Virus record (IMG/VR): IMGVR_UViG_3300028048_000059
Span: 32,001-96,000 of that record
Origin: a virus
Lineage: Duplodnaviria > Caudoviricetes
Direction: 5' to 3' (one strand)
Length of the DNA stretch: 64,000 nucleotides
The notes under the pieces are model-generated. The model worked only from the letters and a program-made list of their open reading frames with translations. It was not told the DNA's origin and made no database searches. How positions within the stretch are numbered: the first letter of the stretch is position 1; every line of letters starts with the position of its first letter. Made by a program: the position numbers and the translations under genes. Of the stretch, positions 111 to 63,605 are shown piece by piece.

Positions 111-551
111 ATGAATAAGATTACAATGAAGAACGTAAGTTCGGCGACTGTCAGTGTTATTTCTGATAATTTTAGGCGTTCACTAGCGCCAGGCCGCGTA
201 GTTCCAATTACGCGCGCTATTTATGACGATTTAATGTTTGATCCCGGTTTCGTTAAACTAGTTGAATCTCACTTTTTGAAGATTGATGGTGTTAGCGACG
301 ATCAGGGTGTCATTCCTAATGAGCAAAACGTATATGATGTTGCCGCAATTCGTTCTATGTTAGAAAATAAAGATTATGCCGCTTTTACTAAATTCATTCC
401 TCATGCTACTGCCGCTGAGAAAGACACTGTTATAAAGCTTGCGGTAGAAATGGGAATTACAGATGGCGGCTTCACCGCTCTTATTAAGAAATATTGTGGC
501 GTAGATGTTATTTCTGCTATTAATCAAAAACATCTTGCCGAAGAAAAGTAA
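111..551 (+). CDS. Hypothetical virion morphogenesis protein
   Basis: 146 aa ORF with AAAGGAGG RBS, first gene after the probable capsid terminator. Confidence 0.75.
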   Translation: MNKITMKNVSSATVSVISDNFRRSLAPGRVVPITRAIYDDLMFDPGFVKLVESHFLKIDGVSDDQGVIPNEQNVYDVAAIRSMLENKDYAAFTKFIPHATAAEKDTVIKLAVEMGITDGGFTALIKKYCGVDVISAINQKHLAEEK

Positions 552-1033
552 TGGCTACACCTTTTCTAAAAGTTTATGACGCCTTTTTAGGGCGTATTAC
601 CGCGGACGAATGGTCGCTAGAAGAAGAACTAGCTATTGTAGAGCGGGATTGGCAAGAACTTTTAAAAATTGCGGTCTTTCGTTTTAAGTATCCGCGAGTA
701 GATTTAACAATAGAAGAAGTAGAACCTCCTGAACATGGTCGATTAGGAATATATCAATTTGCCGCCGATTTGAATAATGAAGAAATTCAATTACTTGCTT
801 TATACATGAAGCATGAGTGGGTAAAGAGATGTATTGCTAGTTGGGAAAACATTCGCCAACTTTATGCCGATAAAGATTTCTCACAAGCAAACCATTTAGA
901 TAAATTAAATAAACTTGAAGCCGCGATTGAATTAGAAGTTCATCGTGCCGAAGGAATTTATGATAGATCAAGGGAAAAGCGGCCAGCAGATTTATTCAAA
1001 AAGCTCGCCGGAAAAAAGAACATTGTCGGATGA
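551..1033 (+). CDS. Putative head-tail connector/adaptor
   Basis: 160 aa, translationally coupled (TAATG). MATPFLKVYDAFL start and position are typical of adaptor proteins in SPbeta-like phages (recollection). Confidence 0.55.
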   Translation: MATPFLKVYDAFLGRITADEWSLEEELAIVERDWQELLKIAVFRFKYPRVDLTIEEVEPPEHGRLGIYQFAADLNNEEIQLLALYMKHEWVKRCIASWENIRQLYADKDFSQANHLDKLNKLEAAIELEVHRAEGIYDRSREKRPADLFKKLAGKKNIVG

Positions 1034-1295
1034 AACTTTTGACGGATATAAGAATAAATTAAAAGGCCGATTATACGGCTTACTTTGTGAGAAAGAAAAA
1101 AATGGCGATTGGGAAAAATTTCTAGATTCAATTATTATTGAATTATATGGTTTAGGACCGAATTCAATTAATTACTGGGCGCTGATGGGAAAAATACAGG
1201 CGTTACGCTTCTTATCTTATGATGCGTTTCGCCGTACCGTTTTTGAGAGTATTAATCTTGTCGGCGGTTTAGATAAAAACGATGCATTATCTTGA
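1023..1295 (+). CDS. Small hypothetical structural-module protein (probable TTG start at 1023; ORF track extends to 945)
   Basis: Fills the gap between flanking genes with short overlaps at both ends. Confidence 0.65.
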   Translation: MSDETFDGYKNKLKGRLYGLLCEKEKNGDWEKFLDSIIIELYGLGPNSINYWALMGKIQALRFLSYDAFRRTVFESINLVGGLDKNDALS

Positions 1296-1734
1296 TGTAT
1301 ATTGGTCTAGAATAAACCATTTAGGAGAGACTACTGCTGAACGTATTAAAAATGGTGGTATTCGTTCATTTGAAAAATGGATGGCTGAATCACCACATAC
1401 GGTTCGAGATTTATCTGTGGAAAGAGGTCTTTATTTTGATGGATTAATTCTCACAAATAAAGATAAAGAATATGAAAAAATTATGTTTTTAAATGTTGCA
1501 AATGATATTCCTATTCGCGTTGGGGATATTATGAATTGGGCTATTGAAGATGGCACCATTGAAAAATGGATTTTAATTCAAAAAGAGAAAAAAGTAAATG
1601 GAACATATCAAACTTTTTGGATTGTACGTTGCAATTATTTATTAAAATGGATTGATGAGGTTGGGCATTTGAAACAATCTTGGGCATATGTTGTTAGTTC
1701 TCTTGATTCAAAAATTAAGGGAAATTATCGAACT
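1282..1734 (+). CDS. Neck/head-closure-type protein, exon 1 (spliced product about 461 aa)
   Basis: Ends …GNYRT at the U of a P1 U-G pair and joins in frame to TGG AAT TCA (WNSLITPQPNKYAEILMPR) at 2775. Confidence 0.8.
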
Positions 1735-2774
1735 TGAATTTCAGGTTCCTTAACCAGTAATGGTTATGAAAAATGCTATTGAATTGCTGGGAAATTTTAA
1801 TACTCTTTTTACTACAACACGATCCCTGAGACGGGATGAATGTGATAGTTACGAAAGTAGAAAAAAATAAAAGAGTTGATATAATGCTGTAAAGCTAATA
1901 TATCATACAATAAATAATCAGCAGCTAAGCTTAAATAAAAAAGAAAGTTCAACGACTATCCTTTATGGAGTAGGGCGAGTAAGCTCGAAGCGGTAGCCCC
2001 CTGATTAGGGTGAAGATATAGTCTGAAAGGAGTAACAATGAAAGGTATTATTTATTGTGCATATAATAAAATAAACGGAAAAAGATATATTGGGCAAACA
2101 ATTAAACCTTTGGAGCAACGGATTAAATTACATTATTATAGTTCAAATTGTACTTTATTCCATCGTGCTTTAATGAAGTATGAAGAAAAAGATTGGGAAT
2201 GGACAATCATTGATACTGGTGAAGCTGGTACAGAATTATCACAGAAAGAGCAATATTGGATTAATTATTATGATACTTATAACAATCCTTCTAAGGGATA
2301 CAATCTGACGAAAGGCGGCGAAGGCAGCCTTGGTGTTGTTGTAAGTGTTGAACATAAACAAAGAACACGTAACGCTATGTTAACATTAAAAATGAATCAT
2401 TATAAAGAAAAGGTTGAATCTATCAGCAAACCAATAAAATGTATAGAAACAAATGAAGTGTTTTCTTCTATTTCAGAAGCCGCTCGTGCAAAAAATGTTT
2501 CTAATTCTACAATTGCTAAGGCCGCACATTCTGAAAATGGAATGGCTGTTGGTTGCCATTGGAAATTTTTAACTGGTATTGAAAAATTAAAAGTATTAAA
2601 AAATGCTATTTATTGTGTAGAATTAGATCGATTTTATGAAAGTTTTAAAGAGGCTAGAAAGGTTGACAGATTTCATGAAGGAAATTTACGTCTGGCTATG
2701 ATCCAAGGCGACCCGTATGAAGGGAAAATATATGCTGGGTATACTTTTTATTGGGTTAATCCTGATTTACATAG
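1735..2774 (+). mobile_element. Group I intron 1 (neck gene) with GIY-YIG ORF in L9
   Basis: P1 GAACT|TGA-att-TCA-GGTTC; P element GAATTGCTGGGAAA; Q AATCAGCAGCTAAG; R TTCAACGACTA; S GAAGATATAGTCT; terminal G2774; P10 ATTTCA/TGGAAT. Confidence 0.92.
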
Positions 2775-2787: not shown

Positions 2788-3707
2788 TAACTCCACAACC
2801 AAACAAATATGCCGAAATCCTTATGCCACGTTATCCAATCAATCGTGCGACCAACTTTATCGTAGAAGACGAATCTTGGTCGGTAATTGAATATGACCAT
2901 ACCAGTGTGCCTGGTGTTATTTACTTATCTCTTACCGAAGGTAAAATTAATTCTATTTATGATGATATCATTAATGATATTGCCGATACTGATCGTTTAG
3001 CGCAATATTCATTAAGTGTGCCAGAAAAAGTGCAAACATTTAAACCCGGTGATAAAATTGAGCCAAAATTTACTTTAATGAAAAATGGGATGCCATGTGG
3101 CGCAGCATATAAAATTTTGTCTGCGCCCGAAAGTAAGGATAAGACCAAAGAAAAGGATGGCCAACTTACTGTCGCGCCAGATGCTACTGGCGAGATAACC
3201 ATTATTATACAATTAGTTGATTACCCTGAAATTCAAAAAATGATGACTATTCAAGTTAGTAATGTAGATCAAGAATTTTCTGTATATATTGATGGTAAAT
3301 CAACTATTTCCTTAGATAGGCATGCTACCTATCAATTGCAGACCACTGACGAAAATTACAGTGGCGCTAATATTTTCCAACTCTACAAATTATTAGTAGT
3401 TGAAGAATCTGATATAGAACAATATGATAATGATGATTATGTTTTATTTAATCATCCACGCATTGAAGGCGCAAAACTTGCTTTACACAAAAGTGCTGAT
3501 TGGGCCAATTATAGTGCGGCCGCAACTATAACCGAGTTTGCGAAGCAGTATGAAAAAGAGTCAGTTCTTGCTGTGATAAAGGAAAATAATGTTGTGCAAG
3601 CAAATAATAGGAATAAATTAGGCTTTACAATGTTAGCAAATATTTATGAGTATGACGGACAATTTAATATTACTTTTAAGATAATAGAAATTGTTCCATT
3701 ATGGTAG
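2775..3707 (+). CDS. Neck/head-closure-type protein, exon 2 (beta-rich, Ig-like C-terminal part)
   Basis: Same frame as ORF 2823-3707 and open from 2775. Confidence 0.8.
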   Translation, partial: WNSLITPQPNKYAEILMPRYPINRATNFIVEDESWSVIEYDHTSVPGVIYLSLTEGKINSIYDDIINDIADTDRLAQYSLSVPEKVQTFKPGDKIEPKFTLMKNGMPCGAAYKILSAPESKDKTKEKDGQLTVAPDATGEITIIIQLVDYPEIQKMMTIQVSNVDQEFSVYIDGKSTISLDRHATYQLQTTDENYSGANIFQLYKLLVVEESDIEQYDNDDYVLFNHPRIEGAKLALHKSADWANYSAAATITEFAKQYEKESVLAVIKENNVVQANNRNKLGFTMLANIYEYDGQFNITFKIIEIVPLW

Positions 3708-3711
3708 GTGA

Positions 3712-6805: not shown

Positions 6806-7690
6806 ATGATAGATCAATATTTCGGAATAAAAGAGCTTTACGAAGTAGCTCTAAAAGCAAAAACTCCGATGCAATTCGGAGAACGTTATTTAGAAGCTGG
6901 CGAACCTGTTCTATATTTTGAGAATGTTGAGATATCAACCTTAACTGAGCGTTCCTCCCCCATAATGGCTCGTGGCGGTTGGTCCAATTTGCCACGAGTT
7001 ATTTGGGAGGACCGCTCTGAGGTCCAATTTTCTCTTACAGAAGGGGTTCTCTCTTCTATTAGTATGGGAATTCTACTTAGTGCCGCCATGCGGCCGCAAC
7101 CAGAGGAACCATTGCTCGTTCCTAAGAAAGAAGGGCCTTATTCACTTTTTACAGTGGGGCAAGAAAATCGTTTATATTTAGAGCATTGGCCTGTGGACTA
7201 TCCTGTACGGAAAACATTTATTTATGAATATTCGCGTGACGTTGCGCAAAAGAAATATTACGGTAAAAAAATATTCGGCGTTCCTGACCCTTGGGATGAC
7301 GATAAAGAGCGTCCTTGTATTGCAGTTTATGAAGACAAGGCATGCACAATACCGGCAGACGCAAGTAAGAAATATATTGTAGATTATTACTATCAATATA
7401 CAGATGAAGCTTTGATTTATACAATCAATAAAGAGCGGTTTAATGGATTATTCACTCTTGAGGGTAAGTTTTACTCCAAGGATGAAAACGAAGGCTTGAA
7501 TTATACTAATTTAATTTATATGCCTCGCGTGAGAGTCGTAAGTGATATAAACTTACGCTTGGGAGAAAGGGCTGATCCAACAACGTCTGTTTTTCATATT
7601 ATTGGATTGCCAGAAACAATATCCAATAATAGTAAGGGTACAATATTGGAGATAACGCGCTTAAATGATGACATTGATGCGCAAGAGTAA
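6806..7690 (+). CDS. Second tail-tube-like protein (paralog of major tail protein)
   Basis: Collinear motifs with the preceding gene: GIKE, VL(Y/F), ST, GGW.N, W(E/D), FSLTEG/LTLEDA, ADPTT/GDPTT. Confidence 0.78.
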   Translation: MIDQYFGIKELYEVALKAKTPMQFGERYLEAGEPVLYFENVEISTLTERSSPIMARGGWSNLPRVIWEDRSEVQFSLTEGVLSSISMGILLSAAMRPQPEEPLLVPKKEGPYSLFTVGQENRLYLEHWPVDYPVRKTFIYEYSRDVAQKKYYGKKIFGVPDPWDDDKERPCIAVYEDKACTIPADASKKYIVDYYYQYTDEALIYTINKERFNGLFTLEGKFYSKDENEGLNYTNLIYMPRVRVVSDINLRLGERADPTTSVFHIIGLPETISNNSKGTILEITRLNDDIDAQE

Positions 7691-10985: not shown

Positions 10986-11006
10986 GAAATCTTCAGATAC
11001 AAAAAT

Positions 11007-11031
11007 AGCGTGCTATTATAGCACGCTTTTT
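11007..11031 (+). terminator. Terminator-like hairpin within the intron P9 region
   Basis: AGCGTGCTA-tta-TAGCACGCT followed by TTTT. Confidence 0.55.
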
Positions 11032-11058
11032 GTATGCCTTTTTATAAAGGTAGAATTA

Positions 11059-14000: not shown

Positions 14001-17000
14001 AAATAAAATCAAAGAAGCATATGTATTTAATTTACCATTAGCTATTCAATCATACACAGATCAAATTGTTGCTGGCGCAGATGAATTAGAGCAGTCTTTA
14101 AAAAAGATTAGAAGTGGAGTATCTTTTTCAGAAGCATTAACTGCCATAGAAAAAATAAATACTTATGCAAAGGGCGTACCAGAAGTTTCATTACGAGATT
14201 TTGATCAAAAGAATGGCAAGTTGGTGTTAAATAATCCAGAACTTTTAAAGGCTTACATTGATGCAGAGCGTGCTTCGTTAAAAGAGTCATATGCTCCAAT
14301 TAAAGGAGAACTTGAAAAATATAAAACAGATCAGGAGAAAGGTATTAAAGGAGCATATGTCGATCTTTTAGACACATTAAAGGAAAATGATACTGAGATT
14401 GATGAAAGCATCACTAAACATGCGAATTTAATTAATGCGTTAGAAGCTGCTGGTTTGGCCTATCAAGGCGATGATAAACTTTGGTATACGGTTAAAGATT
14501 TTACTAGCAAAATAGACGGTGGATCTGCTTCGGATTGGATGGTTAATTGGTTACAACAACAACAAGCCAATGCTGACGAAGTAATGAAATACTTCGATAG
14601 CGAGATTATACCATCATTATTCTTAGATGCAGGCTTATATACAGATTATTTAGACGGTATCAAGGCAGCTTTCACTGACGAGCAAGGCAATTTTAATGAC
14701 GTCTTCAATGAACATTTAAATTTTAAAGATATTGCACAAGGTAATTTTTCTGGTATTGAAGATAAGAGAATCGTTAACAATATTCTCCGTCCAGCCCAAG
14801 AAAAAATTAATTCTGAAATGAATACTTTCCTTTCGGATATTATTGAGAAAGGCATTGATAATATTTATTTCCCAGACTATGATTTAGGTTTTGCTGGCGC
14901 TAACGTTCAAAATAACGTTGCAAGCATCTTGGCTGGCCCGAATGGATATACTAATTTAATAAAAGAGTATGGCTCCTGGCTCGGTAATTCCATTGAAGAC
15001 TACAACTCAATGTTCCTCTCTGCCTTAGAAAAAGACACTCAAAAAACACAAGCAATTTCCGACGTTATTAATGACGTCACCTTCATCGGAAAGGATCTCG
15101 CCTATGCATCCGCAGACACAATTAAAGAAATCGCTGATATCTATGGTATGCGCATGGATGAGTTGTTCGATGTTGATAGTTATAATGAAGCATTGGGCGG
15201 CTATCAAGTTAATTTCGCCGCCATTAAAGATTTCTCGCTAGATGAAATTCAAGGCGGCATGGAAGCAGTAGCTGATAGTACCAACTCGTTCTTCCAAGCC
15301 ATGGCAGAAACCATTACCAATGGTATTGAAGGCAAATTAACCTATGGTGAATTAGGTGAATTCCGTCAACGTTTAGATGCATTTGGTATTAATTTGGATT
15401 TGTCATTTAAGCGGACGGCGGATGGATTACAATTAAGCACCAATTCTGCTCGCGATCTCTACTTTGAATTACTGAAAATCGATGCTTTGCAAGCACGTCT
15501 TGTGTTCGATTCTTTGGTTGAATCGTTGGAAGAAACCGATGAGCATTATAAAGACATCAGTTCTATTGCTGCACGTATTGCAGAATTACAAGACTTAATT
15601 GATGATGTTAAAACCAATGATGCGCGTCGCAAGCAATATATGGATGAACTTGAATTAGCAAAAGAAATCTATCAAGTTCGTTCTTCCACAGACAACGATT
15701 CCTTTGATTTCATGAATCGTGACTTGGCACCCGGCATGCAGAACCCAATTGATTATTGGAATGCTGGCGGCGAAGCCTATACCGCGATGAATGAGGCCGC
15801 GAAGAGCGGTTACATGAAAATCGAGGACTTCTACAATATTGTTAATGAAATGAACAACATGGCTGCGACTAGCGGCCAAACGCTTATCTTTATGGGCCAG
15901 ACTCTTAGCGGGAGCGCAGAAGATGCGGCCGCACTTATTGAGGCCGGTTTTGGTGCTTTAAAGAATGTCGATGGTAAGGGTGTGCAAATTTCATTAAAGG
16001 ATATTGGTGCTGGATTTGATGTTGGCGCCGCAGCGATGACCAAAGACTTCGATTCTGGCTTGAAAGCTATGGCGAAGTCGCAGATTGAAATGATTGACTC
16101 TGCCATTAGGATGTTGGAAACGGTTGCTGCATTGGAAGAAATAGACACCGACGAAGACGGCGTGCTTTCAATGGATGAAGTCTTTGATGGGAATGAACTT
16201 AGTGAAAATGTACAACAATGGATTAAAGATACTGATATAGCCGCTGGCGGTATTACTATTGGCGGTAAAACACTATTTGAAGCTATCGACGGTTTAGACC
16301 CCGCGCAAGCTGTTGCCTTATTAAACGAATGGAAAGATATCGATTTCTCCGATCCAATTGCTGCTTGGGATTCAATTAGACAACTTTTGAATATCTATTT
16401 CCCCGGTGCAGAAATCGTAAAAGGCGAATCAATTTTTGATATTTTGAAAGTTCCAAGCGGTGCGAAGGAAGATAGTGAGGCATTTGCAGACTGGGCAGAA
16501 AGTTTAGGGTTAGTTAGTAGCTCAGCAAAAGGAATGATAGATTTCCTTGAAAAAGGGCATGAATTGCAAACTGGTTTACCTTGGTATGAAGCAGTTAAAA
16601 AAGCTTTACTTGGTGATAATACTAGTGAAGATGTTTCTAATTTATTTGATCTTTTTGCCGGGTCTAGTTTATCCGCAGAAGACATGCAATTATGGTCTAA
16701 ATTAAATATAAAAGTAGACGAAAAAGGTAATGTAGATAGTGTTATATATACAGCTTCTGATGGTTCGCAGTTGGAATTACCAGAAGATTCTCCCAGCCAA
16801 TGGTCTGATTTAATCGCTGAATATGAAAATAACGTAGCAATTGTTGCGCATACTGGTGGCTCGGCGAAAAAAGTTAATAAAAACAGTAAACTCATAACTC
16901 TAACATTAGAAGATGGAACTGAGATCAATGGCGTTCTTACCTCAGACGGTGATGGTACATATACTGCATCATATGGAGGAAAAAGTGCTACATTTGATCA

Positions 17001-20000: not shown

Positions 20001-22542
20001 CTTTGTTGCAGGACAAAACGGCGCGGAATTTGTTAATTTGGATGACGATGCTATTGTATTCAACCACATGCAAACTAAGCGTTTGCTTTCACATGGTTCT
20101 TCCGGTCGTGGTAAACCAATAACCAATGAGCGCAACGCAGTCTCATTTGCTACTGGTAATACTAGCGGCCCAGCCATGGCATCTGCAAAGCAAGCCATCG
20201 CGCAGCTACAAAAAATTCGTGCCATGTGGCAATCCATGCTCGATGCATCCGCGAAAGACCTAGGCGCGCAAGCCGGTAAAGGCGGCGGAGGCGGCGGAGG
20301 TGGAGGCGGTGGTGGAGGAAAAGACGATAACAAACTCCCCACCAATGTTGTCCATGATCTTGAACGCTGGTATAACTTAGAGCGGCAGATTGATTTAATT
20401 GAGAAGGATATTACTTATCAAGAAAAATTGCAAGATCGCATGTTAAATGACCGCATTGCTAATGGTAAGGAAATTTATAATTCTTATGTGCAAGAACTTA
20501 ATATGTTGCGTAATCAGATTTCGGCACAAAAAGAATTGGCTGCTCTACAAAAGAACTGGTATGACAGTAAAATGGAAGAACTTAATAATTCTTTCTATGG
20601 ACTTGTTTATACCTATAATGAGAAGGGACTGCAACAGTACGTTTCCGATGCGCCAGGTAGCAATCGTGGCTTAGATATTCTTGCATCGTTGCAGACGCGC
20701 GATACAATGAATAATCCTACTGGACATGCAGTTACTGCACAAGAACAAATTAAGTTCTTGATGGATATCGCGCGGCAAGCTGATATTGATGGACAACAAA
20801 ATGATCAAAATTTTGTTCCACATTTTGTGCAAGATTTACAAAAGCTCCTTGTAAAGGATGATGGCTCACGTATTGGCACTAGCATCGATATGAATGGCAT
20901 CATTAGTGGCCTTGAAGAAGGCACTGAACAAAATGATGCGCAAGTCGAATGGATGGAAAACTTCTATGATATGCTAGATGGCTATCAAGAAGAGTTAGAT
21001 AGTCTGTATGATGCTTATCACGATACTCAATTAGACATTCTTGAAAATCAAGTTAAGCTGGAAGAATACGTACAAAAAATGTACGACAACCAGCTAGAAG
21101 TTGAGCAAGAGGTCCTAAAAGCCATTGAAAATCGTCAACAAAAAATGATTGATACTCTGCAAGATCAACGTGACGCATTAGATGAGGCCGCGAAGAAATT
21201 CACAGACGGCTTGAATGAACAAATGCAACGCGAACAGCAGATGTATCAGAATAGTGAAAATGACCAAGAACTGTTGAAGTTACAACGTCAACTCAACATT
21301 CTACGTCGTTCTGGCGGCTCTGCTTCTCAAATTCGCAATCTAGAAGAGCAGATTGCAAGCAAGCAACGCGATTCCTATTTTGAGGCGCAACAACAACAAA
21401 TTGATGCAATTCAAGAAGCTTCGGATAAGGAATTGGAGAGATTGGATGCTCAACTTGATATTATGAATGAGACATTAGAATATCAGAAAGAGCATGGTCT
21501 ATTCTGGGATGAAGTCCAACAAATTATGCAAGGCACAGAAGAAGAAATTCAACATTTCATTCAAGCCAATGGCGAAGAATGGGAGAGTAAATCTGGCTTG
21601 CAGATTCATGAGGATTTGGTTGAACTTGCCGATAAGATTGGTATTTGGGTTGGTTTTAGAGACGATCCTAATAAAGATCAAAACTTGGATATTAAGGATT
21701 GGACAACCTTCGATACTGCATATAGAAGCTACTATGAGAGATTGGGCATGTCCGACACTGATTGGACAGGCGCGGTCAAAACTGCTCATGAAGAAGCCTT
21801 AAAAGCTGGATACGACCCTTGGCAGGCCAGCGTTATGGCGCGCAATAAAGCTGATAAATTGGTTGGAAAACCACCAGTAAGCGATCAAGGCGCTGACAAA
21901 GATAAGGATGCGGCCGCGAATGCAACCCACTATGAGGACGGTCAGCATGCATATCCTGTTATTTTAGCTGGCGGTTCAGGTTTGTTTGCTCATAGGTTCG
22001 ATGATAAATCCCGCATTCGTAATTATGACGCAGGTTCTGAACTTATTGCTTATCCGAATACAGCATATGGCCCTGGCAATCATTTTGTTTGGGTACATGA
22101 CCCATCAACTGGATTGTCTGGTTGGATGTGGTTCAATGGCGGCAACATTAAATATAAGGATAGCGGCAAACCACTATACAGTTATCGCACAGGTGGCCTA
22201 ATCGACTATACTGGCCCCGCATGGGTGGATGGTACAAAGTCACAACCAGAAGCCATATTAAATGCAGAACAAACTGCAATCCTACGTTCTACCCTATTAA
22301 GCGGCAAGAGTTCATTACCTTATGTGCTATCTGAATTAACTAGCATAATAGATGAAACAAGTCACAATAATCTATCAGGATTGAGTGGCGGCGGCACTAT
22401 TATGATAGAACACGCAGAAGTGAACATGAACGTTGGTTCAATTGCAAACGATTATGACGCACGTCGTGCTGGTGAGGCCGCACTTGATGAAATGGTGCGA
22501 ATTGCGAGAAAATCTGGCAGTCGTAGCGTAACAAGGAGGTAA
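11059..22542 (+). CDS. Tail tape measure protein, exon 2 (3827 aa; spliced about 4520 aa)
   Basis: Begins QQSRFLAL; hydrophobic segments, long coiled coils, GELGPE and WVDGT..QPEAIL motifs, poly-Gly, SH3b-like region near the C-terminus. Confidence 0.92.
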   Translation, partial: QQSRFLALVSNGDLLRENLRVAETSDDVGTIQALKALDSLESKLEQVRVSYQQFYTSMGIESVWKGFLDGVRRVIDNLNKLPKLFGKLPVNAVVMIANLVKVISHGLLSGLNKIAQNVQSIIQRINKNSKTEADQGGTQVGKTWVDKIVDSITQGQSKVEQAARETVQKANKAAEEAAQEVTNVQKSKTSKDIAKDGLKDNGIAGITIPKGQAAADKAQFNRDLYNALVDTSNPEQTAATLDPILEGVNNGTISYKQALLDASAAVAKNTNEAKGLGDTMDLVGKNTDKFKTSAGNSVGVVDSLVKETSKMETTTKTSAKIWESFKSGGAWNKAAVGIGTAMQAAAMLIDTSSRAGEVASGSFTTLGSAVSGIAAGVRVFSGDLSALPQLLSSAVSLFSGIGLIVETDAEKVERLTKEAEKLSNEALVKKNEYNTLDQSIKKLEELEEKRYDSAEAAEEYQTAVDELAKQYPELITGIDELGNVTIETANIEYELEKARAAAAEATYNAAQAEREKAIAERDSALNALTGKKEQTSYAHSMNPTDGRKDNTKRLTEQAWNEIIGDYTGKTDLSGLYNTDQNGFTEWITTADGFTEKLLREILEGAANANFVDTNTGFTIVAGEPNEDKKEISINEILSQYFDESGELTDTGLMSKIDKEIEDLNHDIEAKKFDGDEGTQEYIKRSKAIIDLITANGLQGYYENFLENTTGVTEAASELERSRRVLLSTSKITIDAAVKTYAGGQTEFLESLGNSNALLNQYLFDKANELDAYDLENDPDAIEKFKNSDDFAEGIEAYKAEFEALSPSDTKKFLDMWKNRQNYSEQDWMEVFDFDGASVIWQSIQGYYSDQAIGYRDQLERLKKQIDRLPKESTSDTLFSNLENTLREFAPYLSSSLTKWIGGVFDEYEKYVSQGFYSNANDLIMGLTGALTSLQGMSEDDRLNAENILQQVDFSSIESIDKAIEAATAAGFEVDSFIVTSLNKIKEAYVFNLPLAIQSYTDQIVAGADELEQSLKKIRSGVSFSEALTAIEKINTYAKGVPEVSLRDFDQKNGKLVLNNPELLKAYIDAERASLKESYAPIKGELEKYKTDQEKGIKGAYVDLLDTLKENDTEIDESITKHANLINALEAAGLAYQGDDKLWYTVKDFTSKIDGGSASDWMVNWLQQQQANADEVMKYFDSEIIPSLFLDAGLYTDYLDGIKAAFTDEQGNFNDVFNEHLNFKDIAQGNFSGIEDKRIVNNILRPAQEKINSEMNTFLSDIIEKGIDNIYFPDYDLGFAGANVQNNVASILAGPNGYTNLIKEYGSWLGNSIEDYNSMFLSALEKDTQKTQAISDVINDVTFIGKDLAYASADTIKEIADIYGMRMDELFDVDSYNEALGGYQVNFAAIKDFSLDEIQGGMEAVADSTNSFFQAMAETITNGIEGKLTYGELGEFRQRLDAFGINLDLSFKRTADGLQLSTNSARDLYFELLKIDALQARLVFDSLVESLEETDEHYKDISSIAARIAELQDLIDDVKTNDARRKQYMDELELAKEIYQVRSSTDNDSFDFMNRDLAPGMQNPIDYWNAGGEAYTAMNEAAKSGYMKIEDFYNIVNEMNNMAATSGQTLIFMGQTLSGSAEDAAALIEAGFGALKNVDGKGVQISLKDIGAGFDVGAAAMTKDFDSGLKAMAKSQIEMIDSAIRMLETVAALEEIDTDEDGVLSMDEVFDGNELSENVQQWIKDTDIAAGGITIGGKTLFEAIDGLDPAQAVALLNEWKDIDFSDPIAAWDSIRQLLNIYFPGAEIVKGESIFDILKVPSGAKEDSEAFADWAESLGLVSSSAKGMIDFLEKGHELQTGLPWYEAVKKALLGDNTSEDVSNLFDLFAGSSLSAEDMQLWSKLNIKVDEKGNVDSVIYTASDGSQLELPEDSPSQWSDLIAEYENNVAIVAHTGGSAKKVNKNSKLITLTLEDGTEINGVLTSDGDGTYTASYGGKSATFDHPGEAAEWIREQARAAIWGVGNRGGKKLNTETGTIETYYTITGKIDEDIEEQIQTGDISEELQKKIDEGVASGKAFEIGGITFDAGTTQQEVIDAFNESLPEDPYATLVQQIADGITAAFTQHSTEIAKAFSDGISQAVKDAMGGGENPTTTVPESIDFISVAGLSIIRAYEEDGTISYAFADDPNNTMTREAMVAAINEKITNDEGEGGIDAGTLDNVLATGSGGLNFKANYDPDTGETTWTVSGIDGKGAFTEENITADQKAQLIKSLSTGASAIVNLGDSGKVIVAQSTNGVIYTAILEPDENGIYSMTMPSGSKWTSKNPQVLLTSYIKLKRTADNKALLDSYANDAGASPDDEPLQPLKFSYTVGMEERTITVQDEGNGLFLVQGFGDPIHTSNPIEYINNQLASQGISIDQLQTVPDSLGYIPFEQTIDGITYRIVNKGNNNYGFYSDDNLLGTLTSTNLEIFLDSIKASAKSSALQITGFSVNEENNLLIDFKYPGLNYDIQYDATKNQWLENGTPLTGVTDFDSVIEHFKEEAKKTAGSTTSESQSQDVDFEVKGAITFDNDTTREQLINFLAALQSLLTGQPLHVGVVATPVNHLNTDLSTADDISDSSGIWSGAGYKNAADYATTLADIVLHGGQLEKLDFSNLNVLNNSGLVTSVTIGENEYTIADILEKAEENADGVTSMQDLANAFKDIDADNLGKVADALALMATNALTLKDIPWVTIAEGINNLVLKKKPKPEGQSNPTTPEKVGDAATQKVEEIVEEYELDVEIPNLAITATSATLTATDLTVTGGQTTPTPGGNAGGSEGDSSGGPTTSTSVSIDTSAAQASIAQLATSIGFLGLTSLTSSISVTGLQTAMGKIPTEAGSRVGFLAEKMGTIPSGKSTYVSSLATAMGKIPTGAATAVNNVANALDKIKNATVRLVLSVSVQTSGTGAKGTVTSISRGTKTGTAFGTAGTITLTNAKGNVALAAGRRTLMGELGPELVVSNGRYFVAGQNGAEFVNLDDDAIVFNHMQTKRLLSHGSSGRGKPITNERNAVSFATGNTSGPAMASAKQAIAQLQKIRAMWQSMLDASAKDLGAQAGKGGGGGGGGGGGGGKDDNKLPTNVVHDLERWYNLERQIDLIEKDITYQEKLQDRMLNDRIANGKEIYNSYVQELNMLRNQISAQKELAALQKNWYDSKMEELNNSFYGLVYTYNEKGLQQYVSDAPGSNRGLDILASLQTRDTMNNPTGHAVTAQEQIKFLMDIARQADIDGQQNDQNFVPHFVQDLQKLLVKDDGSRIGTSIDMNGIISGLEEGTEQNDAQVEWMENFYDMLDGYQEELDSLYDAYHDTQLDILENQVKLEEYVQKMYDNQLEVEQEVLKAIENRQQKMIDTLQDQRDALDEAAKKFTDGLNEQMQREQQMYQNSENDQELLKLQRQLNILRRSGGSASQIRNLEEQIASKQRDSYFEAQQQQIDAIQEASDKELERLDAQLDIMNETLEYQKEHGLFWDEVQQIMQGTEEEIQHFIQANGEEWESKSGLQIHEDLVELADKIGIWVGFRDDPNKDQNLDIKDWTTFDTAYRSYYERLGMSDTDWTGAVKTAHEEALKAGYDPWQASVMARNKADKLVGKPPVSDQGADKDKDAAANATHYEDGQHAYPVILAGGSGLFAHRFDDKSRIRNYDAGSELIAYPNTAYGPGNHFVWVHDPSTGLSGWMWFNGGNIKYKDSGKPLYSYRTGGLIDYTGPAWVDGTKSQPEAILNAEQTAILRSTLLSGKSSLPYVLSELTSIIDETSHNNLSGLSGGGTIMIEHAEVNMNVGSIANDYDARRAGEAALDEMVRIARKSGSRSVTRR
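19597..19770 (+). repeat. About three 18-aa (54-nt) degenerate repeats MG(K/T)IP(T/S) in the tape measure
   Basis: ATGGGGAAAATTCCTACT / ATGGGTACTATTCCATCT / ATGGGTAAAATACCCACT at 54-nt spacing. Confidence 0.7.
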
Positions 22543-30240: not shown

Positions 30241-30270
30241 AAAATAAGCCCGCCGAAAGGCGGGCTTTAT
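30241..30270. terminator. Bidirectional terminator between convergent late and early regions
   Basis: A-run, AAGCCCGCC-gaaa-GGCGGGCTT, T-rich tail. Confidence 0.9.
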
Positions 30271-37799: not shown

Positions 37800-37810
37800 A
37801 ACTACCAACC

Positions 37811-39315: not shown

Positions 39316-39316
39316 A

Positions 39317-47384: not shown

Positions 47385-48433
47385 AACACAAACCTAACAT
47401 TGTCCACAGTAGCATATTTTTTAATTGTGGCTTCTACATTAACTAAATTAGGATCACTAATTTCTTCAATATAAAAATAACCACTATATTCAGTCATAAT
47501 TCGAGCCGCAAATTTTACTCGCTCTAATTCACCTAATTCATATTTACCAGTCAATATGTGGCCTTCATCGACTCCTGATAAATATGCTAACATGATAGTT
47601 TGAAGTTCTTCCTTATCCATCTCAGTTACAATAAACAATACTTTTCTTGGTTTACGTTCTTGCCCTTGCGCATCAAGCTCTTCAATAAAAGTATGTAATT
47701 GATGTGAATAGCGAATCGGATATGCTAATCTACAAGCGTCAAAAACTGCCGTTCTCGTTTTACCTGAACCGCTACTTGCTGATTTTAGAAAAAAGCAACC
47801 TTGCCGCGCGCCTCTACAAACACTACTAAAAATCTTACCCTCTAAGCTTGGTCCAATATTTGGTGTGCGTTGTAATTCCTCAATTAAATCAAATACTCCA
47901 TCTGCTGGATTTTGTTTACTGCGGCCGCCCTTCAAAAATTCATTTCTAATAATATTATATTTACCTTCAACACTATTTAAAATATCTTCTAATGAGCTTT
48001 CTTCAAAGTGTTGCTGAATACGAGTCTCTTCTAATGGGTCTGTGACTTTTTCACTAGCAATATAAAAATCACTAACATCATACCCATCTTTGATTAAGCG
48101 TCGTAATAGAGAATATTTTTTTAATCTTATATAATAAAGATTAAAATTGCTTATTTCTGCAAATTCATAAGCAATTTTTAGAAATTCTAACCCATTATTT
48201 TGATTATATATTAGCGCGCTATTTTCATGTTTTTCAATCTCTTGATCTACTTCAATCGGAGTTAATTTTGTTGCACCTTCATTATATAATTTTTGAATAA
48301 TAATAAAACAAATTCGCGCAACTTTATTATCAAAATCCATAGGATAGATATCTGTGTATTCAATTAATAATAATGGATTTATCATCAAACATCCAATAAT
48401 TTGACGATAGGCCATTTTATCAGATAAAACCAT
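47385..48433 (-). CDS. dnaB: Replicative helicase, exon 1 (spliced 536 aa)
   Basis: Walker A ASSGSGKT, LFIVTEM. Confidence 0.9.
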
Positions 48434-51178: not shown

Positions 51179-52069
51179 TTATTCCCAACTATACTTACTA
51201 GATTCGGCCGCAGGCTTGGCCGCAGGCTTATTTGTAGCATTGATTTGAAGCTGCTCGATATTGGCCTTGCGTACATTGAATGCCTTCTTAATATCCGCCG
51301 GATCATATGCAAACTCTTCTTCAAACGGCTCATCAGAACCACGAGTAATAATTAGTTCGCGGGCTGTACGTGTAGAAGTTTCTTCAACTTCCTCACCCCA
51401 AGAAGAATTTGAAGCAGTGCGCTTTTCTTCCACAGAAGTATAACGAATATGACCGCCAGCATGCACTGTATCATTCACATTCCAATTCCTCTGAACGAAA
51501 TCAATGTAATCTTGCTGCTCAACGACAAACTCAATAACATCAAGCTTACCGCCGTATTGTACAACGCCACCCTTTACAATGAAACGTCCAGTTGGGTCAC
51601 CTTCACGATCAAGTTCATCGTGCATATCCATAATGAAAATATCGATATCAAAGATCGCTGTGTCGGAAATATTTCCACCATTAGAAATGAATGGTGTATT
51701 AATCTGCCATCCACTGATAAGCTGACCACTACGTGTTACAAAATTATTTTCACGCACGTTCGCACTGGTTAGACTGATACGAGACGCGGCCGCTTCGCCT
51801 ACTTCCTGCACCGTCTTCATTTGCTTCATTTCTTGGATACAACGCCAACCAGGATGAGCCTTACCAGTTGATGTAGTCGGTGTCGCAAAAATGCTTACTG
51901 GAATTTCGCTTGTCTCTTCTCGACCACTATATGTATGAGTGGTTCGAATAGTAAAATTCACACTTTCATACTGAGACCCGGTTTTAAGAGTTCCATTACG
52001 GAAAGTACAATCAAGAAGCTTACCTACAATCTTTAACTTATTTGTTGCTTGTTCACCAATATTCTTCAT
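51179..52069 (-). CDS. Putative single-stranded DNA-binding protein (tandem OB folds)
   Basis: NKLKIVG.L start, beta-rich, flexible tail; adjacent to the Sak4-like ATPase. Confidence 0.62.
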   Translation of the reverse strand: MKNIGEQATNKLKIVGKLLDCTFRNGTLKTGSQYESVNFTIRTTHTYSGREETSEIPVSIFATPTTSTGKAHPGWRCIQEMKQMKTVQEVGEAAASRISLTSANVRENNFVTRSGQLISGWQINTPFISNGGNISDTAIFDIDIFIMDMHDELDREGDPTGRFIVKGGVVQYGGKLDVIEFVVEQQDYIDFVQRNWNVNDTVHAGGHIRYTSVEEKRTASNSSWGEEVEETSTRTARELIITRGSDEPFEEEFAYDPADIKKAFNVRKANIEQLQINATNKPAAKPAAESSKYSWE

Positions 52070-53017: not shown

Positions 53018-55396
53018 TTACATAATTTCAATAGATGCTGTATTATTACGAGCATCAATGATGCGTACACCAGTTGTTGTCCTATTTTGCACAGGTACGT
53101 CTTCAATATTTAAAAGGACAGACTTTGTTCCTGTTGCAACAAATAAAGTATGCTGGTCTTCTGGAATAACACGTGCGGCCGCCACATAGTTGTTGTCTTT
53201 CAATAACATAATCGAGGAGCCTTTAACGCATCGTGACGTCATCGTGAAATCAGATAGTGGAGTAATTTTTCCATATCCTTCCGTAGAAATGGTCAGCAAT
53301 CCCTTGTAAGAAAATGCTTTTTTAACTAGTGTTGTTGCTGCAACAAACTCAGTTTCTTTTAGCTTAATAGCTTTTACTCCTTTTGTGTTACGCCCAGTGG
53401 CATTGATTTCGATTAAATTATAATAATTATAATTGCCACTGTTGCTAATAATAAAGATGGCGTCTTCATCGGTGGATGATAGAAAGGCATTGACTAGTGT
53501 ATCGCCGTCTTCAAGTTTTACCGCGGCGGCACCTTTTGTGGCGCGCACATTGTATTCAGAGATATAGCTTTTCTTGATATATCCTTTCTTACTTACGGTT
53601 ACTAAATTACGATAAGATTGGAATGTGGTGCCATCAATTAAGAATAGAACTTTTTCATCATTCTTCAAAGCAAGTAGTTCATAAATACTGTAATCTACTT
53701 CATACTCTAAGTCACTTAATGAAAAATTATACATGCGGCCGCCATTGGTCAACGCATTAACAATACTCAAATTTGTTGCATACAATGTATTAATTAGGTT
53801 TGCATTTTTTGGTGGCTTTAAATTAGTGCCTTTGCGTCCACGTTTTCCACCTTGTAGCTCTTCTTTTTTAATAATACGAATCATATTATTATCAAAAAGG
53901 AGAACGCCAACCTTTTCTTCAATGATTTCGGGTTTTTCTTCTTCACTTTCATGCAGATCAATAATTTTGGTTCTACGTTCATCGCCAAATTTGTCTGCAA
54001 TTTCTTGTAAAATTTTAATTAGTTCAGCGTCCAAAGCGGTGCTATCTGTTAATAGGTGCTGATACCAAGCAATTTTCTCATCAAGTTCTTTTGCCTCATT
54101 ATTCAATTTTACAATGTCTAATTTGGTTAAAGAAGACAATTTCATTGCAAGGATTGCTTTTGCCTGATCTTCATTAAAGCCATGCGTATTAATTAATTTG
54201 TTTGCGGCTTCTGTTGGATTCGCGGAGCTTCTAATTAATGCTACAACTTCATCAATAATTGAATAGGCTTTAATCAAACCATCTACAATATTCTTGCGGG
54301 CTAATGCTTTATCAAGGTCAAATTGGACTTCATTGTGCTTGCATTTTCTAATATGGGTGATATATGCTCTGCATGCATCTGCCCACCCAAAAATTTTAGG
54401 AAAACGTCCTTGATCAAGCAAAATCATATTAATAGAATACCAATATTCTAATGATGTATCTTTATATAATTTTTCAATGATGCGTTTAACATTTACTCCT
54501 TTTGATAAATAAATTCTAATATCGGCCTCTTTTTTTGTATGATCAACGACTTTCTCAATACCGTAATTTTCATTTTCACTAACAATTGCTGCCAATTGAT
54601 CGATAATAGTGTTTGTAAAAACACTGTATGGTAAATTAGTGGCTTGAATCATATTTTGATCAGGGTCATATTTTAATGTTGCTCTAATTCTAATAGATTC
54701 CCCTTTTCCATTTTTGAGCGATTGCTTTACAGCGGCAGCATTGATGATTGTGCCGCCACATGGAAAATCTGGCGAACAATAAATTTCATCGAAAGAAGCA
54801 TTTGAATTTTTAATGAGAGTAATTAAAGCATTATTAACCTCTTTAAGATTAAAAGTTGGTACGCTTGTAGCAAGTGCGACAGCAATGCCAGAGCATCCAT
54901 TCACGATATTCCAAAAGCCGATTGATGGGAATACACTAGGAATCATTTCTGTGTCATCATAATTTGAATAATATTCATCGCCAATCGCGTTTTTCTTTAA
55001 ACCAGCAAATAGAATATCAGAAATTTCCGCCGCCTTCATTTCAACATAACGCGCGGCCGCATGACTATCAGGTGATGATGGATTGCCATAGTTACCTTGT
55101 ACTGCTTCAAGCGGATAACGATAAGACCATGGCCTTGCAGCACGAATAAAAGTGTCATACATCGCTGCATCGCCATGGACATAAGCGAGACTCATTGCTG
55201 AGGCTACAGACTTCTGTGCCTTCTGGTACTTATCTTTATAAGTTAGCTTATTTGAATATTGTGCATACAAGCCTTGCCGCAAACCAATCTTTAAAAAATC
55301 CCTTACATCGGGCAACGCTCTCTCCTGTGCGACCGAAGCTCCATATTTGAGGAAAGCTGTTTCAACTGTCTGTTGAAAATCTACATTACGTATCAT
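53018..55396 (-). CDS. gyrA: Type IIA topoisomerase (gyrase/topo IV) subunit A
   Basis: RALPDVRD.LK, HGD, AAARY catalytic Tyr, SGIAV, PDFP.GG, C-terminal beta-pinwheel repeats. Confidence 0.92.
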   Translation of the reverse strand: MIRNVDFQQTVETAFLKYGASVAQERALPDVRDFLKIGLRQGLYAQYSNKLTYKDKYQKAQKSVASAMSLAYVHGDAAMYDTFIRAARPWSYRYPLEAVQGNYGNPSSPDSHAAARYVEMKAAEISDILFAGLKKNAIGDEYYSNYDDTEMIPSVFPSIGFWNIVNGCSGIAVALATSVPTFNLKEVNNALITLIKNSNASFDEIYCSPDFPCGGTIINAAAVKQSLKNGKGESIRIRATLKYDPDQNMIQATNLPYSVFTNTIIDQLAAIVSENENYGIEKVVDHTKKEADIRIYLSKGVNVKRIIEKLYKDTSLEYWYSINMILLDQGRFPKIFGWADACRAYITHIRKCKHNEVQFDLDKALARKNIVDGLIKAYSIIDEVVALIRSSANPTEAANKLINTHGFNEDQAKAILAMKLSSLTKLDIVKLNNEAKELDEKIAWYQHLLTDSTALDAELIKILQEIADKFGDERRTKIIDLHESEEEKPEIIEEKVGVLLFDNNMIRIIKKEELQGGKRGRKGTNLKPPKNANLINTLYATNLSIVNALTNGGRMYNFSLSDLEYEVDYSIYELLALKNDEKVLFLIDGTTFQSYRNLVTVSKKGYIKKSYISEYNVRATKGAAAVKLEDGDTLVNAFLSSTDEDAIFIISNSGNYNYYNLIEINATGRNTKGVKAIKLKETEFVAATTLVKKAFSYKGLLTISTEGYGKITPLSDFTMTSRCVKGSSIMLLKDNNYVAAARVIPEDQHTLFVATGTKSVLLNIEDVPVQNRTTTGVRIIDARNNTASIEIM

Positions 55397-61361: not shown

Positions 61362-61366
61362 CCTGC

Positions 61367-62009: not shown

Positions 62010-62011
62010 AA

Positions 62012-62413
62012 TTACTCCTTCGGCGGCATAAAAGCTTTCAATAGTATTAAAATTTGTGTATCTTGCACCGTATCAAGCAATGCTTCTCTACGTTCTTGCG
62101 GCAGAATAGCAAGCAGCGCGCCGCTTAATCTAACCGCAGAAGCTAAGTGCATAAAGTCTTTTGTTGCATTCATTGCGGCCGCCACACGTTCTTCTCCAAA
62201 CCATTTTGTAAAAAGCTGCTTCGTGTGTTCTTCTCCTTCTGTAATTGTTTGCTCATATTTTTCAATATAATTATTGCTATTGGTTCCATTAATATACTTA
62301 TCAAAAATATATTGAAGTAGAGCTTGACCAGAAGGTGATACGGTATACATGCCGTTTTTGATTTTTGCTTTAATCCACTGTTCTTTAATCCACTTTTTAA
62401 GTTGCGCGATCAT
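62012..62413 (-). CDS. Hypothetical protein
   Basis: Operon-packed ORF. Confidence 0.7.
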   Translation of the reverse strand: MIAQLKKWIKEQWIKAKIKNGMYTVSPSGQALLQYIFDKYINGTNSNNYIEKYEQTITEGEEHTKQLFTKWFGEERVAAAMNATKDFMHLASAVRLSGALLAILPQERREALLDTVQDTQILILLKAFMPPKE

Positions 62414-62783
62414 GTAGGATGCCCTCTTTCTTCATTTCTTGAATGATTTCAAAAATGGCGGCTGGCAGTAGATGAATTCGAATAATGCAATCAAGATATT
62501 GCATGAAATACGTACGATTGCGCTTGATATCTTCAATTTCAAGACCTAAATCATCGTATGCATCAAAAGCAAGTTCAATATTAGAACATACATATTCTGC
62601 CGCAGTTTGTGCATCTGTATAATAATCACCACCATTACCAGTAACGCTATCTACTGCCCAAACTTCATCAAATAGAAAATCTTCTAACTCATCATAATCA
62701 TCGAATTGATCTAAATCAACATCAACACTAATATAATCACGCACATCGTTTTTTAGTGCTTCTAAATAATCATATTTAATCAT
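62397..62783 (-). CDS. Acidic hypothetical protein (W..DSVTGN motif)
   Basis: Operon-packed ORF with GGAGG RBS. Confidence 0.7.
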   Translation of the reverse strand: MIKYDYLEALKNDVRDYISVDVDLDQFDDYDELEDFLFDEVWAVDSVTGNGGDYYTDAQTAAEYVCSNIELAFDAYDDLGLEIEDIKRNRTYFMQYLDCIIRIHLLPAAIFEIIQEMKKEGILHDRAT

Positions 62784-63060
62784 CTATGTCCTCCATTGTG
62801 GCGGAAAATCCTTTTACTGTGTAACCTGGAAAGCACCATTGAACAAATTTATTTACATCATGAACTACAATCGGTTCTTTTCCTTTACCAGAAAGTTCAT
62901 CATTAAAACCATAAATTTCAATATTATCATAACCGTAAGCATGCGCTTTTACGCGAAGCGATCGTGCATCGGTTGTAAAAACAGCATAATTATTATCAGA
63001 CGCAAACTTCAATAGTTCTTTGGTCTTGCCGCTACCTCGCGGCCCAATAATTGTTTTCAT
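62776..63060 (-). CDS. Minimal P-loop NTPase-like protein (94 aa)
   Basis: GPRGSGKT Walker A, IVVHD Walker B-like; ATGA coupling with the upstream gene. Confidence 0.7.
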   Translation of the reverse strand: MKTIIGPRGSGKTKELLKFASDNNYAVFTTDARSLRVKAHAYGYDNIEIYGFNDELSGKGKEPIVVHDVNKFVQWCFPGYTVKGFSATMEDIDD

Positions 63061-63605
63061 TGTGTTACTCCTAATTCTTGATAGTATACAATTAATTTCC
63101 AATTCCATGAGAGAGTTTCTTTATTAGCAATAAATTCATAAGAGGCGGCCGTACCATCGGAGACATCTTCATATCCAGCACCTTTGTCGCATTGCCATTG
63201 ATAATAGACCTCACAATTTTCAAAGCCAGTGAGTACAGAAGTTAGATAAATTGTATCGCCATAGGTAACAACTGGTCCGCGAGAAGAAGAGATTGTAACG
63301 GTTTTTTCAATTGGATGCAGCGTTATAGATGGTTCTTCCACAACAGGAAACGTTAGTTCTGGTTCTGGTTCTGGCTCTTGAATTACTACATAATTTTCAC
63401 TAAATGGCGGCGCCACTGATATCTCCGCATATGCGGAAAAAGTTGCTTCTTCAACAACGATTTCTGCTTCAATTTCAACTTCAAATTCTGTTGGTTCTTC
63501 TGTTGATTCAACTATAAAATCAATTTCATTTTCAATTAATTGTGGTTCCTCTGCCATGCTAGTGAGTGCTAACATGCAGGCAATAATGAATGGAATTTTC
63601 TTCAT
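63057..63605 (-). CDS. Secreted acidic protein with C-terminal Ig-like domain
   Basis: Signal peptide MKKIPFIIACMLALTSMA; E/P-rich linker; GDTIYL…YYQWQ…Y.F…W.L.V. Confidence 0.72.
   Translation of the reverse strand: MKKIPFIIACMLALTSMAEEPQLIENEIDFIVESTEEPTEFEVEIEAEIVVEEATFSAYAEISVAPPFSENYVVIQEPEPEPELTFPVVEEPSITLHPIEKTVTISSSRGPVVTYGDTIYLTSVLTGFENCEVYYQWQCDKGAGYEDVSDGTAASYEFIANKETLSWNWKLIVYYQELGVTQ

Follow-up and report, generated by a model that had tools for sequence, protein, structure and literature searches.

The 8-bp palindrome GCGGCCGC is about ten times commoner in the genome of a large, AT-rich tailed phage (Caudoviricetes) of the rumen than its proteins and codon usage require. The word was studied in a window of 64,000 nucleotides, bases 32001–96000 of the 157,489-bp IMG/VR virus record IMGVR_UViG_3300028048_000059, and in the whole record, which is labelled G000 (37.9% GC; 91% complete by CheckV). 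The pressure behind the word acts on DNA and not on codons. It is specific to a phage clade, is tunable between lineages, makes sites at a cost to the protein, and protects existing sites.

The original prediction had listed at least 14 copies of GCGGCCGC in the window, together with several dozen GGCCGC/GCGGCC words. Exactly 14 copies were found, with every coordinate right, and GGCCGC/GCGGCC occurred 79 times; the count of GCSGC in the window was 221. The whole record contained 38 copies across all modules. Dinucleotide-preserving shuffles of the window gave a mean of 0.25 copies and a maximum of 2. The Markov expectation for the window was 0.07 copies at order 0, 0.25 at order 1, 0.5 at order 2, and 2.1 at order 3. 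A Markov test of maximal order looked as if it dissolved the 8-mer signal; this was an artefact, as the 6- and 7-mers lie almost wholly inside the sites. The window has 18 CGGCCG, 14 of them within GCGGCCGC, so the motif saturates the higher-order models.

The contribution of coding was investigated with ~177 genes called in G000 by using a codon-likelihood filter. In the synonymous shuffle, codons were permuted among synonyms within each gene, and protein and per-gene codon usage were kept. The excess, whose disappearance under such shuffling had been named in the original prediction as its refutation, stayed: the window gave 1.14 ± 1.04 copies, and never more than 6 in 300 shuffles, versus 14 observed. 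For the whole genome, the synonymous shuffle gave 10.2 copies versus 38 observed, and 7 of the 10 were in unshuffled sequence. Shuffles keeping protein and dinucleotides gave 9.7–13.8 copies for the genome, and shuffles within 20-codon blocks, which barely randomise, gave 17.9 with a maximum of 23. A codon or amino-acid artefact was ruled out by the four kinds of shuffle. Local GC heterogeneity was also rejected, since the flanks of the sites are at background GC and the 20-codon-block shuffles never reach the observed count.

In called genes, 31 copies were observed and 3.2 expected. The Ala-Ala-Ala frame held 19 copies versus 2.5 expected, the xGC-GGC-CGC frame (Gly-Arg) 8 versus 0.7, and the xxG-CGG-CCG-C frame (Arg-Pro) 4 versus 0.04. 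The per-frame excess was 7- to 40-fold or more and was greatest in frames 1 and 2. The claimed use of several reading frames was therefore confirmed, with 9 Ala-Ala-Ala, 3 Gly-Arg, and 2 Arg-Pro sites in the window; the claimed occurrence in early and late genes also held, with sites in structural, replication, and early genes alike. The other 7 copies of the genome lay in 28.7 kb of uncalled sequence. Their density was equal to that in genes, and was ~1 per 4 kb in genes and non-coding sequence alike. The spacing tended towards evenness in G000, but not in G001: the largest gap in G000 was 9.7 kb (simulated median, 16.4 kb; P = 0.002), and the coefficient of variation of its spacing was 0.76 (P = 0.05).

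GCGGCCGC is the head-to-head overlap of two GCSGC words, and shorter parts of it were enriched as well. Under the synonymous null of the genome, the observed and expected counts were 622 and 349 for GCSGC, 210 and 83 for GGCCGC/GCGGCC, and 101 and 38 for CGGCCGC, while GCWGC was depleted (198 versus 291). GCSGC was present at 2–4 per kb, in every frame and on either strand. In G000, the full 8-mer is more than two overlapping 5-mers and behaves as a unit in itself. The sibling palindrome GCCGCGGC, with identical stacking steps, occurred 5 times in the genome versus 38 for GCGGCCGC (p = 2.5e-7). Among the 44 Ala-Ala-Ala of G000, 19 were spelled GCG-GCC-GCN, with ~1.5 expected from codon usage. 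In the three GCGGCCGC-type (NotI-type) genomes pooled, GCG-GCC accounted for 28% of Ala-Ala-Ala and 7% of Ala-Ala-nonAla; therefore, codon choice depends on whether the next codon completes the word.

Around the sites, no repeat structure and no conserved sequence past two bases were found. Flank bias occurred only at −1 and −2, towards T, and was clear only at −1 (T 58%, A 9%), giving a weak context of T-GCGGCCGC-A. A miniature mobile repeat was rejected because of these flanks. Single-base variants of GCGGCCGC were mildly enriched and not depleted, which fits weak or decaying sites. Transition variants at positions 1, 2, and 4 were enriched 1.4- to 3-fold, and the position 3/6 transition was the sole single-base variant under expectation (0.62), all on small counts.

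Searches of IMG/VR with GyrA and a major-capsid-like protein gave >100 relatives. Five of them, G001–G005, were assembled from fetched stretches for word counting only. In all five, GCSGC was ~2-fold and GCWGC ~0.6-fold. GCGGCCGC was favoured in G001 (29 versus 6.3 expected) and G004 (14 versus 2.2). G002 and G005 favoured CCGCGG/CGCG-type words (GCCGCGGC, 35 versus 9.2 and 16 versus 1.9; CCGCGG, 145 versus 45), and this preference was independent of completing an 8-mer. G003 (32.7% GC) had one GCGGCCGC only. In 24 further clade genomes (3.5 Mb), 202 GCGGCCGC were counted versus 15 of its reversed control word, and 118 GCCGCGGC versus 16 of its own. G000 had the highest GCGGCCGC density among the clade genomes examined.

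Once a site exists, it is protected from the synonymous decay to which other G/C positions are subject. Sites were compared one by one in two close pairs, G001/G004 (83% identity) and G002/G005 (90%). Four-fold wobble G/C inside GCGGCCGC was kept in 24 of 25 and 26 of 36 cases in G001/G004 and in 12 of 12 and 12 of 14 in G002/G005. All other four-fold wobble G/C was kept at ~42–45% and ~60–62%, respectively, and wobble G/C outside S-rich words at 38–41% and 54–56%. The Fisher p for sites versus background was down to 1e-8. Conservation was graded by motif completeness, with lone GCSGC and GGCCGC intermediate, and other five-base G/C runs in G001/G004 had no protection. In the His-Ala-Ala-Ala-Arg-Tyr motif of GyrA, the site was present in 6 of 12 aligned relatives, while adjacent synonymous positions were variable. 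Conservation of the sites of HIP1 (highly iterated palindrome 1 of cyanobacteria) has been argued to indicate selection (Xu et al. 2018, PMC5861425), and by the same argument the conservation found here points to selection. The Ala-Ala-Ala sites of G000 mostly aligned to non-Ala residues of relatives (Asp-Ala-Ala, Ala-Glu-Ala, Asp-Glu-Ala, Ala-Leu-Val, Phe-Ala-Lys, and others); therefore, the word was written in via several protein-changing substitutions.

The sole match to the phage in 185,579 species genomes was an Acutalibacteraceae metagenome-assembled genome (MAG; JAZQTG01, loci L058–L075). Two of its contigs, C11 (112 kb) and C88 (47 kb), jointly form a near-complete related phage. These two contigs (159 kb) carried 12 of the 16 GCGGCCGC in the MAG, and the remaining 2.25 Mb, with the same GC (35–36%), carried 4. 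In 175 kb sampled from the chromosome, the GCSGC/GCWGC ratio was 1.2, compared with 2.7 for the phage contigs. Provided that the binning is correct, the signal is that of the phage. A host signature as the source was rejected for this one MAG with a related phage, as its chromosome was without excess. Since C11 and C88 end in phage genes with no visible bacterial flank, they represent a co-binned phage and not a demonstrated prophage. No serine or tyrosine integrase was found in the four near-complete genomes searched (G000–G003), notwithstanding their SPbeta-like replication genes; the clade is thus probably virulent, and a lengthy prophage residence is unlikely.

The word had been proposed to be a HIP1-like iterated palindrome produced by methylation-linked repair. 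The resemblance to HIP1 was upheld, as the excess is frame-independent, survives codon shuffles, and is maintained; the proposed cause was not, as neither a cytosine-5 (C5) methylase nor Vsr was found in six-frame searches of the 91%-complete G000 (PF00145, PF03852). The same kind of search gave no N4/N6 methylase (PF01555). The only DNA methylase found in G000 was a D12-class N6-adenine enzyme at 100674–101561 of G000 (L054:4674–5561, minus strand), and Pfam and PHROG scans of ~70 proteins gave no mismatch enzyme and no methylase other than this one. GATC was only mildly depleted in G000 (0.73). Among 30 clade genomes, two (G005 and G009) had a C5 methylase. It was missing from 15 of the 16 clade genomes at least 90% complete, most of which share the excess. 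G002, which is complete and close to G005, was without the C5 methylase of G005 and had the same word bias. The suggested link to the multispecific C5 methyltransferases of SPbeta/phi3T was not supported: SPbeta (NC_001884), which carries the enzyme, had 0 GCSGCSGC in 134,416 bp. GCNGC, put forward as a target class, is not the relevant one because GCSGC is enriched and GCWGC depleted. The winged helix-turn-helix protein at 52166 (MarR-like), offered as an example of a binder, was also found in G003 with its single site, and its presence does not track the motif.

Other known signals were also investigated. Strong gyrase sites have ~10.5-bp periodic GC in ~60-bp arms around a symmetric core and are long, degenerate motifs (Sutormin et al. 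2018, PMC6379681). The presence of gyrA and gyrB in the phage prompted a test for such a site, which was rejected: there was no 10–11 bp power in 224 oriented flanks pooled over the clade. The Chi sequence of B. subtilis type (AGCGG) was not enriched in G000. A Chi-like host signal was rejected as well, since the word is palindromic and the ~2.25 Mb of the MAG that are not phage contigs hold only the 4 sites mentioned, the host being assigned by binning.

The results are read tentatively, and with less than even confidence, as a HIP-like word that is read on phage DNA by a phage-specific factor and kept by selection. Such a reader, probably dimeric, would recognise GCGGCCGC on duplex DNA and act along the whole chromosome during lytic growth. 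It may mark or organise phage DNA for replication, recombination, repair, or packaging, and the host chromosome, almost without the word, would provide the contrast for marking. Selection for a graded affinity, GCSGC < GGCCGC < GCGGCCGC, would create and keep the sites. The reader would not be a C5 methyltransferase. A reader is favoured because the full palindrome is the unit, variants are not purged, the densities in genes and spacers are equal, and large gaps are avoided in G000. It is doubtful that GCGGCCGC is a "self" mark of the virulent clade, read chromosome-wide for repair, recombination, nuclease protection, or packaging, with the reader retuned in sister lineages. If true, a HIP-type repeat would for the first time have a functional explanation, in a genome of ~180 genes.

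Several results weigh against a selected word with a reader. The density of GCGGCCGC varies ~40-fold among whole or near-whole assemblies, from 1 per 4 kb (G000) to 1 per 164 kb (G003), with the same core genes; such a spread is difficult to square with a conserved and essential function. Among the few genomes compared, only three or four tiny open reading frames (ORFs) differ and the motif does not follow the presence of any gene, and no protein was pinpointed as the reader. The even spacing of G000 was not reproduced in G001, where no departure from random was found. The link to the host is by metagenomic binning of one MAG. A stepwise repair ratchet would account equally well for the hierarchy of sub-words and for the GCWGC deficit, and site-specific repair also would conserve sites.

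Such a ratchet of biased correction would be functionless. Phage-borne mismatch processing or the replisome would resolve near-cognate mismatches to G:C, along a path from GCWGC to GCSGC, GGCCGC, and GCGGCCGC, and damaged sites would be repaired back. It is somewhat unlikely as the cause, even though it matches the stepwise enrichment of all sub-words with conservation graded in the same order, the values of ~0.68 for GCWGC and ~1.8-fold for GCSGC (classes that differ by the central transition), and the 3/6 transition as the sole variant below expectation. The 40-fold density spread among relatives with the same core genes fits as well, as do the differences in strength and word choice by lineage, which look as if an activity had changed; G001 apparently gained ~9 sites and G004 gained 1. 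The model of Elhai for HIP words is of the same kind (PMC4390886). However, no methylase, Vsr, or recognisable mismatch enzyme was among the ~70 proteins scanned, and positions 1, 2, and 4 have an excess, not a deficit, of transition variants. A corrector of the GCSGC centre cannot yield 38 GCGGCCGC and 5 GCCGCGGC, the GCSGC surplus (+273) is far above the GCWGC deficit (−93), and many sites took 2–4 substitutions, amino-acid changes included. GCSGC could instead be the sole real unit, read for example by a phage primase or replisome needing stable GC-rich sites, and GCGGCCGC a mere overlap. GCSGC is up ~2-fold in every clade genome, including G003 with almost no 8-mers, its frequency and its presence on both strands and in all frames are consistent with such a role, and the phage encodes its own primase, helicase, and DnaE. 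This explanation is improbable, as the four overlap forms would be expected about equally often and were found at 38 for GCGGCCGC, 5 for GCCGCGGC, and 23 for the two direct forms together. The dependence of GCG-GCC choice on the next codon also speaks against it, as does the fact that wobble positions are better conserved in the 8-mer than in GCSGC standing alone.

C5 methylation of GGCC/GCNGC by an enzyme of SPbeta/phi3T type or of the host, with very-short-patch T:G repair, is very improbable, and for a phage-encoded enzyme it is largely refuted. GCSGC, CGGCCG, CCGCGG, and GCGGCCGC are the specificities of TauI, EagI, SacII, and NotI, so the word classes look like those of restriction–modification systems. 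In cyanobacteria, alternate HIP words are found together with cognate methylases (PMC4390886), and G005, G009, and the MAG chromosome each carry a C5 methylase. These points are opposed by the lack of PF00145, PF03852, and PF01555 matches in G000, by the excess in most clade genomes without the enzyme, G002 among them, and by SPbeta without such a site. The putative host chromosome, which is exposed to any host enzyme, is without excess, and GCWGC, half of the GCNGC class, is depleted. That the word is a by-product of codon-pair or amino-acid bias, GC heterogeneity, restriction avoidance off GCW-GCN, a mobile repeat, or an assembly artefact is hardly credible. Restriction avoidance is indeed very strong in G000 (CTNNAG, 36 versus 383 expected from synonymous shuffles; many 6-bp palindromes absent), and avoidance of GCWGC would favour GCS-GCN in Ala-Ala. 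However, the excess is greatest in frames 1 and 2, where GCWGC avoidance is irrelevant, and it survives local and dinucleotide-preserving shuffles. The flanks are unremarkable in GC and free of repeats, and the sites are in frame in conserved genes, some at the same position in independent assemblies.

Full-text literature searches gave no viral iterated palindrome of this kind and no report of GCGGCCGC over-representation. Among described systems, HIP1 and the alternate HIP GCsGC of Cyanothece PCC 7822 come closest. HIP1 (GCGATCGC) of cyanobacteria is, like GCGGCCGC, an 8-bp GC-rich perfect palindrome with the outline GC-NNNN-GC (PMC5861425, PMC4390886). Both are more than ten-fold over-represented, are found in intergenic sequence as well as in all frames of genes, and show conservation among relatives that exceeds background. 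HIP1 differs in the word itself, in its setting (a cellular chromosome versus what is probably a virulent Bacillota phage), and in its density (~1 per kb versus ~1 per 4 kb in G000). It also differs in that G000 has no cognate methylase in its genome and a putative host without the word. Unlike HIP1, GCGGCCGC has variants that suggest an asymmetric inner core, GGCCGC, and not a symmetric inner 6-mer. The alternate HIP GCsGC of Cyanothece PCC 7822 (PMC4390886) is the same 5-mer class as the clade-wide base layer found here, and further alternate HIPs are GGCGCC and rCCGGy (Elhai 2015, PMC4390886). In cyanobacteria and in this phage clade alike, related lineages swap GC-rich palindromes, here GCGGCCGC-type versus CCGCGG/CGCG-type. 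Cyanothece PCC 7822 has a predicted GCsGC-specific methylase, whereas 28 of the 30 clade genomes are without a C5 methylase. Moreover, in the phage, unlike in Cyanothece, selection adds to the 5-mer an 8-mer made of two GCSGC words.

Very-short-patch repair by Dcm/Vsr of E. coli raises CCWGG-related words and lowers CTAG. It resembles the present case in that the word and the products of its central-base transition are oppositely biased (GCSGC up, GCWGC down). It differs in that no methylase or Vsr is present here, other transitions of the 8-mer are not depleted, and the effect does not extend to the chromosome of the putative host. Chi, KOPS, Noc, and MatP sites are similar in having tens of copies replicon-wide, in genes, with kilobase spacing, and it is conceivable that such a word sets one replicon apart from the rest of the DNA in a cell. 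Chi and KOPS are asymmetric, oriented, and enriched in the host chromosome, whereas GCGGCCGC is palindromic, without strand bias, and nearly absent from the putative host. For the multispecific C5 methyltransferases of SPbeta, phi3T, and SPR, the 8-mer formally decomposes into their targets (which include GGCC and GCNGC), and G000 shares SPbeta-type replication genes; the difference is that no such gene is in G000 and that SPbeta is without GCSGCSGC.

Phages normally purge short palindromes and thereby escape restriction. G000 purges dozens of words, yet it writes in and keeps GCGGCCGC at an amino-acid cost, which was unexpected. To our knowledge, no function or origin of HIP1 has won acceptance in ~30 years, and the leading model for it needs a cognate methylase. 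The same kind of signal is found here in a probably lytic phage without such a methylase. With ~180 genes, >100 relatives of graded density, and lineages that switch words, the question of reader versus ratchet becomes tractable. The word excess is also a clade marker, separating phage from host contigs of the same GC in rumen bins.

The 14 sites of the window were assigned to genes as follows. Site 1 (3516..3523) encodes Ala-Ala-Ala in an ORF at 2823–3707 (+). Site 2 (7090..7097) encodes Arg-Pro in frame 2 of an ORF at 6806–7690 (+), where relatives have unrelated residues. Sites 3 (15925..15932) and 4 (21910..21917) both encode Ala-Ala-Ala in an ORF of 3865 amino acids at 10945–22542 (+); at the latter, G001 has Gly-Gly-Ser. 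Site 5 (30456..30463) encodes Gly-Gly-Arg in frame 1 of an ORF at 30267–30662 (−), site 6 (33533..33540) Ala-Ala-Ala in the gene of a GIY-YIG protein at 32968–33996 (−), and site 7 (39120..39127) Arg-Pro in frame 2 of an ORF at 38236–39342 (−). Site 8 (40017..40024), in the C-terminal piece of DnaE (YorL-like) at 39317–41650 (−), encodes Ala-Ala-Ala, and relatives have Asp-Ala-Ala or Glu-Ser-Ala. Site 9 (47921..47928), in the DnaB-like helicase gene at 47315–48433 (−), encodes Gly-Gly-Arg, and relatives have Gly-Gly-Lys/His. Site 10 (51786..51793) encodes Ala-Ala-Ala in an ORF at 51179–52069 (−), with Asp-Glu-Ala, Asp-Gly-Ala, or Ala-Asn-Ala in relatives.

Three sites lie in gyrA (53018–55396, −). 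Site 11 (53175..53182) encodes Ala-Ala-Ala in a stretch that is rewritten versus all relatives, with one extra codon. Site 12 (53735..53742) encodes Gly-Gly-Arg, and several relatives are one base off (GCGGCCGA). Site 13 (55053..55060) is the site in the conserved His-Ala-Ala-Ala-Arg-Tyr motif that was shared with half of the aligned relatives. The last site, site 14 (62175..62182), encodes Ala-Ala-Ala in an ORF at 62012–62413 (−), where G003 has Lys-Pro-Ala.

The replication genes of G000 are of SPbeta type, with a split YorL-like DnaE (38% identity to phages of the SPbeta group) and a RecJ-like YorK. G000 further encodes GyrA/GyrB, a DnaB-like helicase, primase, anaerobic ribonucleotide reductase, ligase, RNase H, and a nucleotide-salvage set. 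Three of its genes are in two pieces in the window: DnaE (42097–43494 and 39317–41650), GyrB (59218–60693 and 57673–58071, with a LAGLIDADG ORF at 58085–59092 in between), and NrdD (36921–37814 and 35047–35778). Introns or inteins are the probable cause of the splits. Between the DnaE pieces (window 41850–41932), a stretch of ~55–80 nt was 85–93% identical to short stretches in >200 phage genomes, with matches in Staphylococcus, Listeria, Enterococcus, and Bacillus phages; it is probably a conserved intron core. The nucleotide-salvage genes form a cluster at 98147–111146 of G000 (L054:2147–15146), which is unusual in a phage. The cluster has a xanthine/uracil-family permease, a nucleoside 2-deoxyribosyltransferase-like protein, a deoxynucleoside monophosphate kinase, and a PnrA-like nucleoside-binding lipoprotein, and it is adjoined by PhoH-PIN, ClpP, an ATP-dependent ligase, and RNase H. 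G000 reads the standard genetic code. Relatives G001–G005 (loci L014–L051) appear to be TAG-recoded, with TAG as a sense codon: when TAG was read as sense in the fetched relatives, coverage by ORFs of at least 150 amino acids rose from 0.42–0.49 to 0.70–0.92, and their portal gene had 2–8 TAG codons in frame.

The depletion of CTNNAG in G000 was ~ten-fold and extended over all ten classes. CTGCAG, CTATAG, CTCGAG, GTCGAC, and GTGCAC were absent from G000, and AGGCCT, GGTACC, ACGCGT, AGTACT, and GAGCTC were nearly absent. The pattern suggests that a CTNNAG-specific restriction system and several 6-cutters are avoided, which would imply that hypermodification gives the DNA no general protection. 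Avoidance of CTNNAG was common to relatives L007, L008, and L013 and was not found in the other relatives. Runs of A8/T8 were also scarce in G000 (14 versus 57 expected), and in every genome A7 reached only ~0.5–0.6 of the expected count. A second GC-only 8-bp palindrome, GGCCGGCC, was present in 20 copies at 1–24000 of G000, outside the window, all of them outside called genes.

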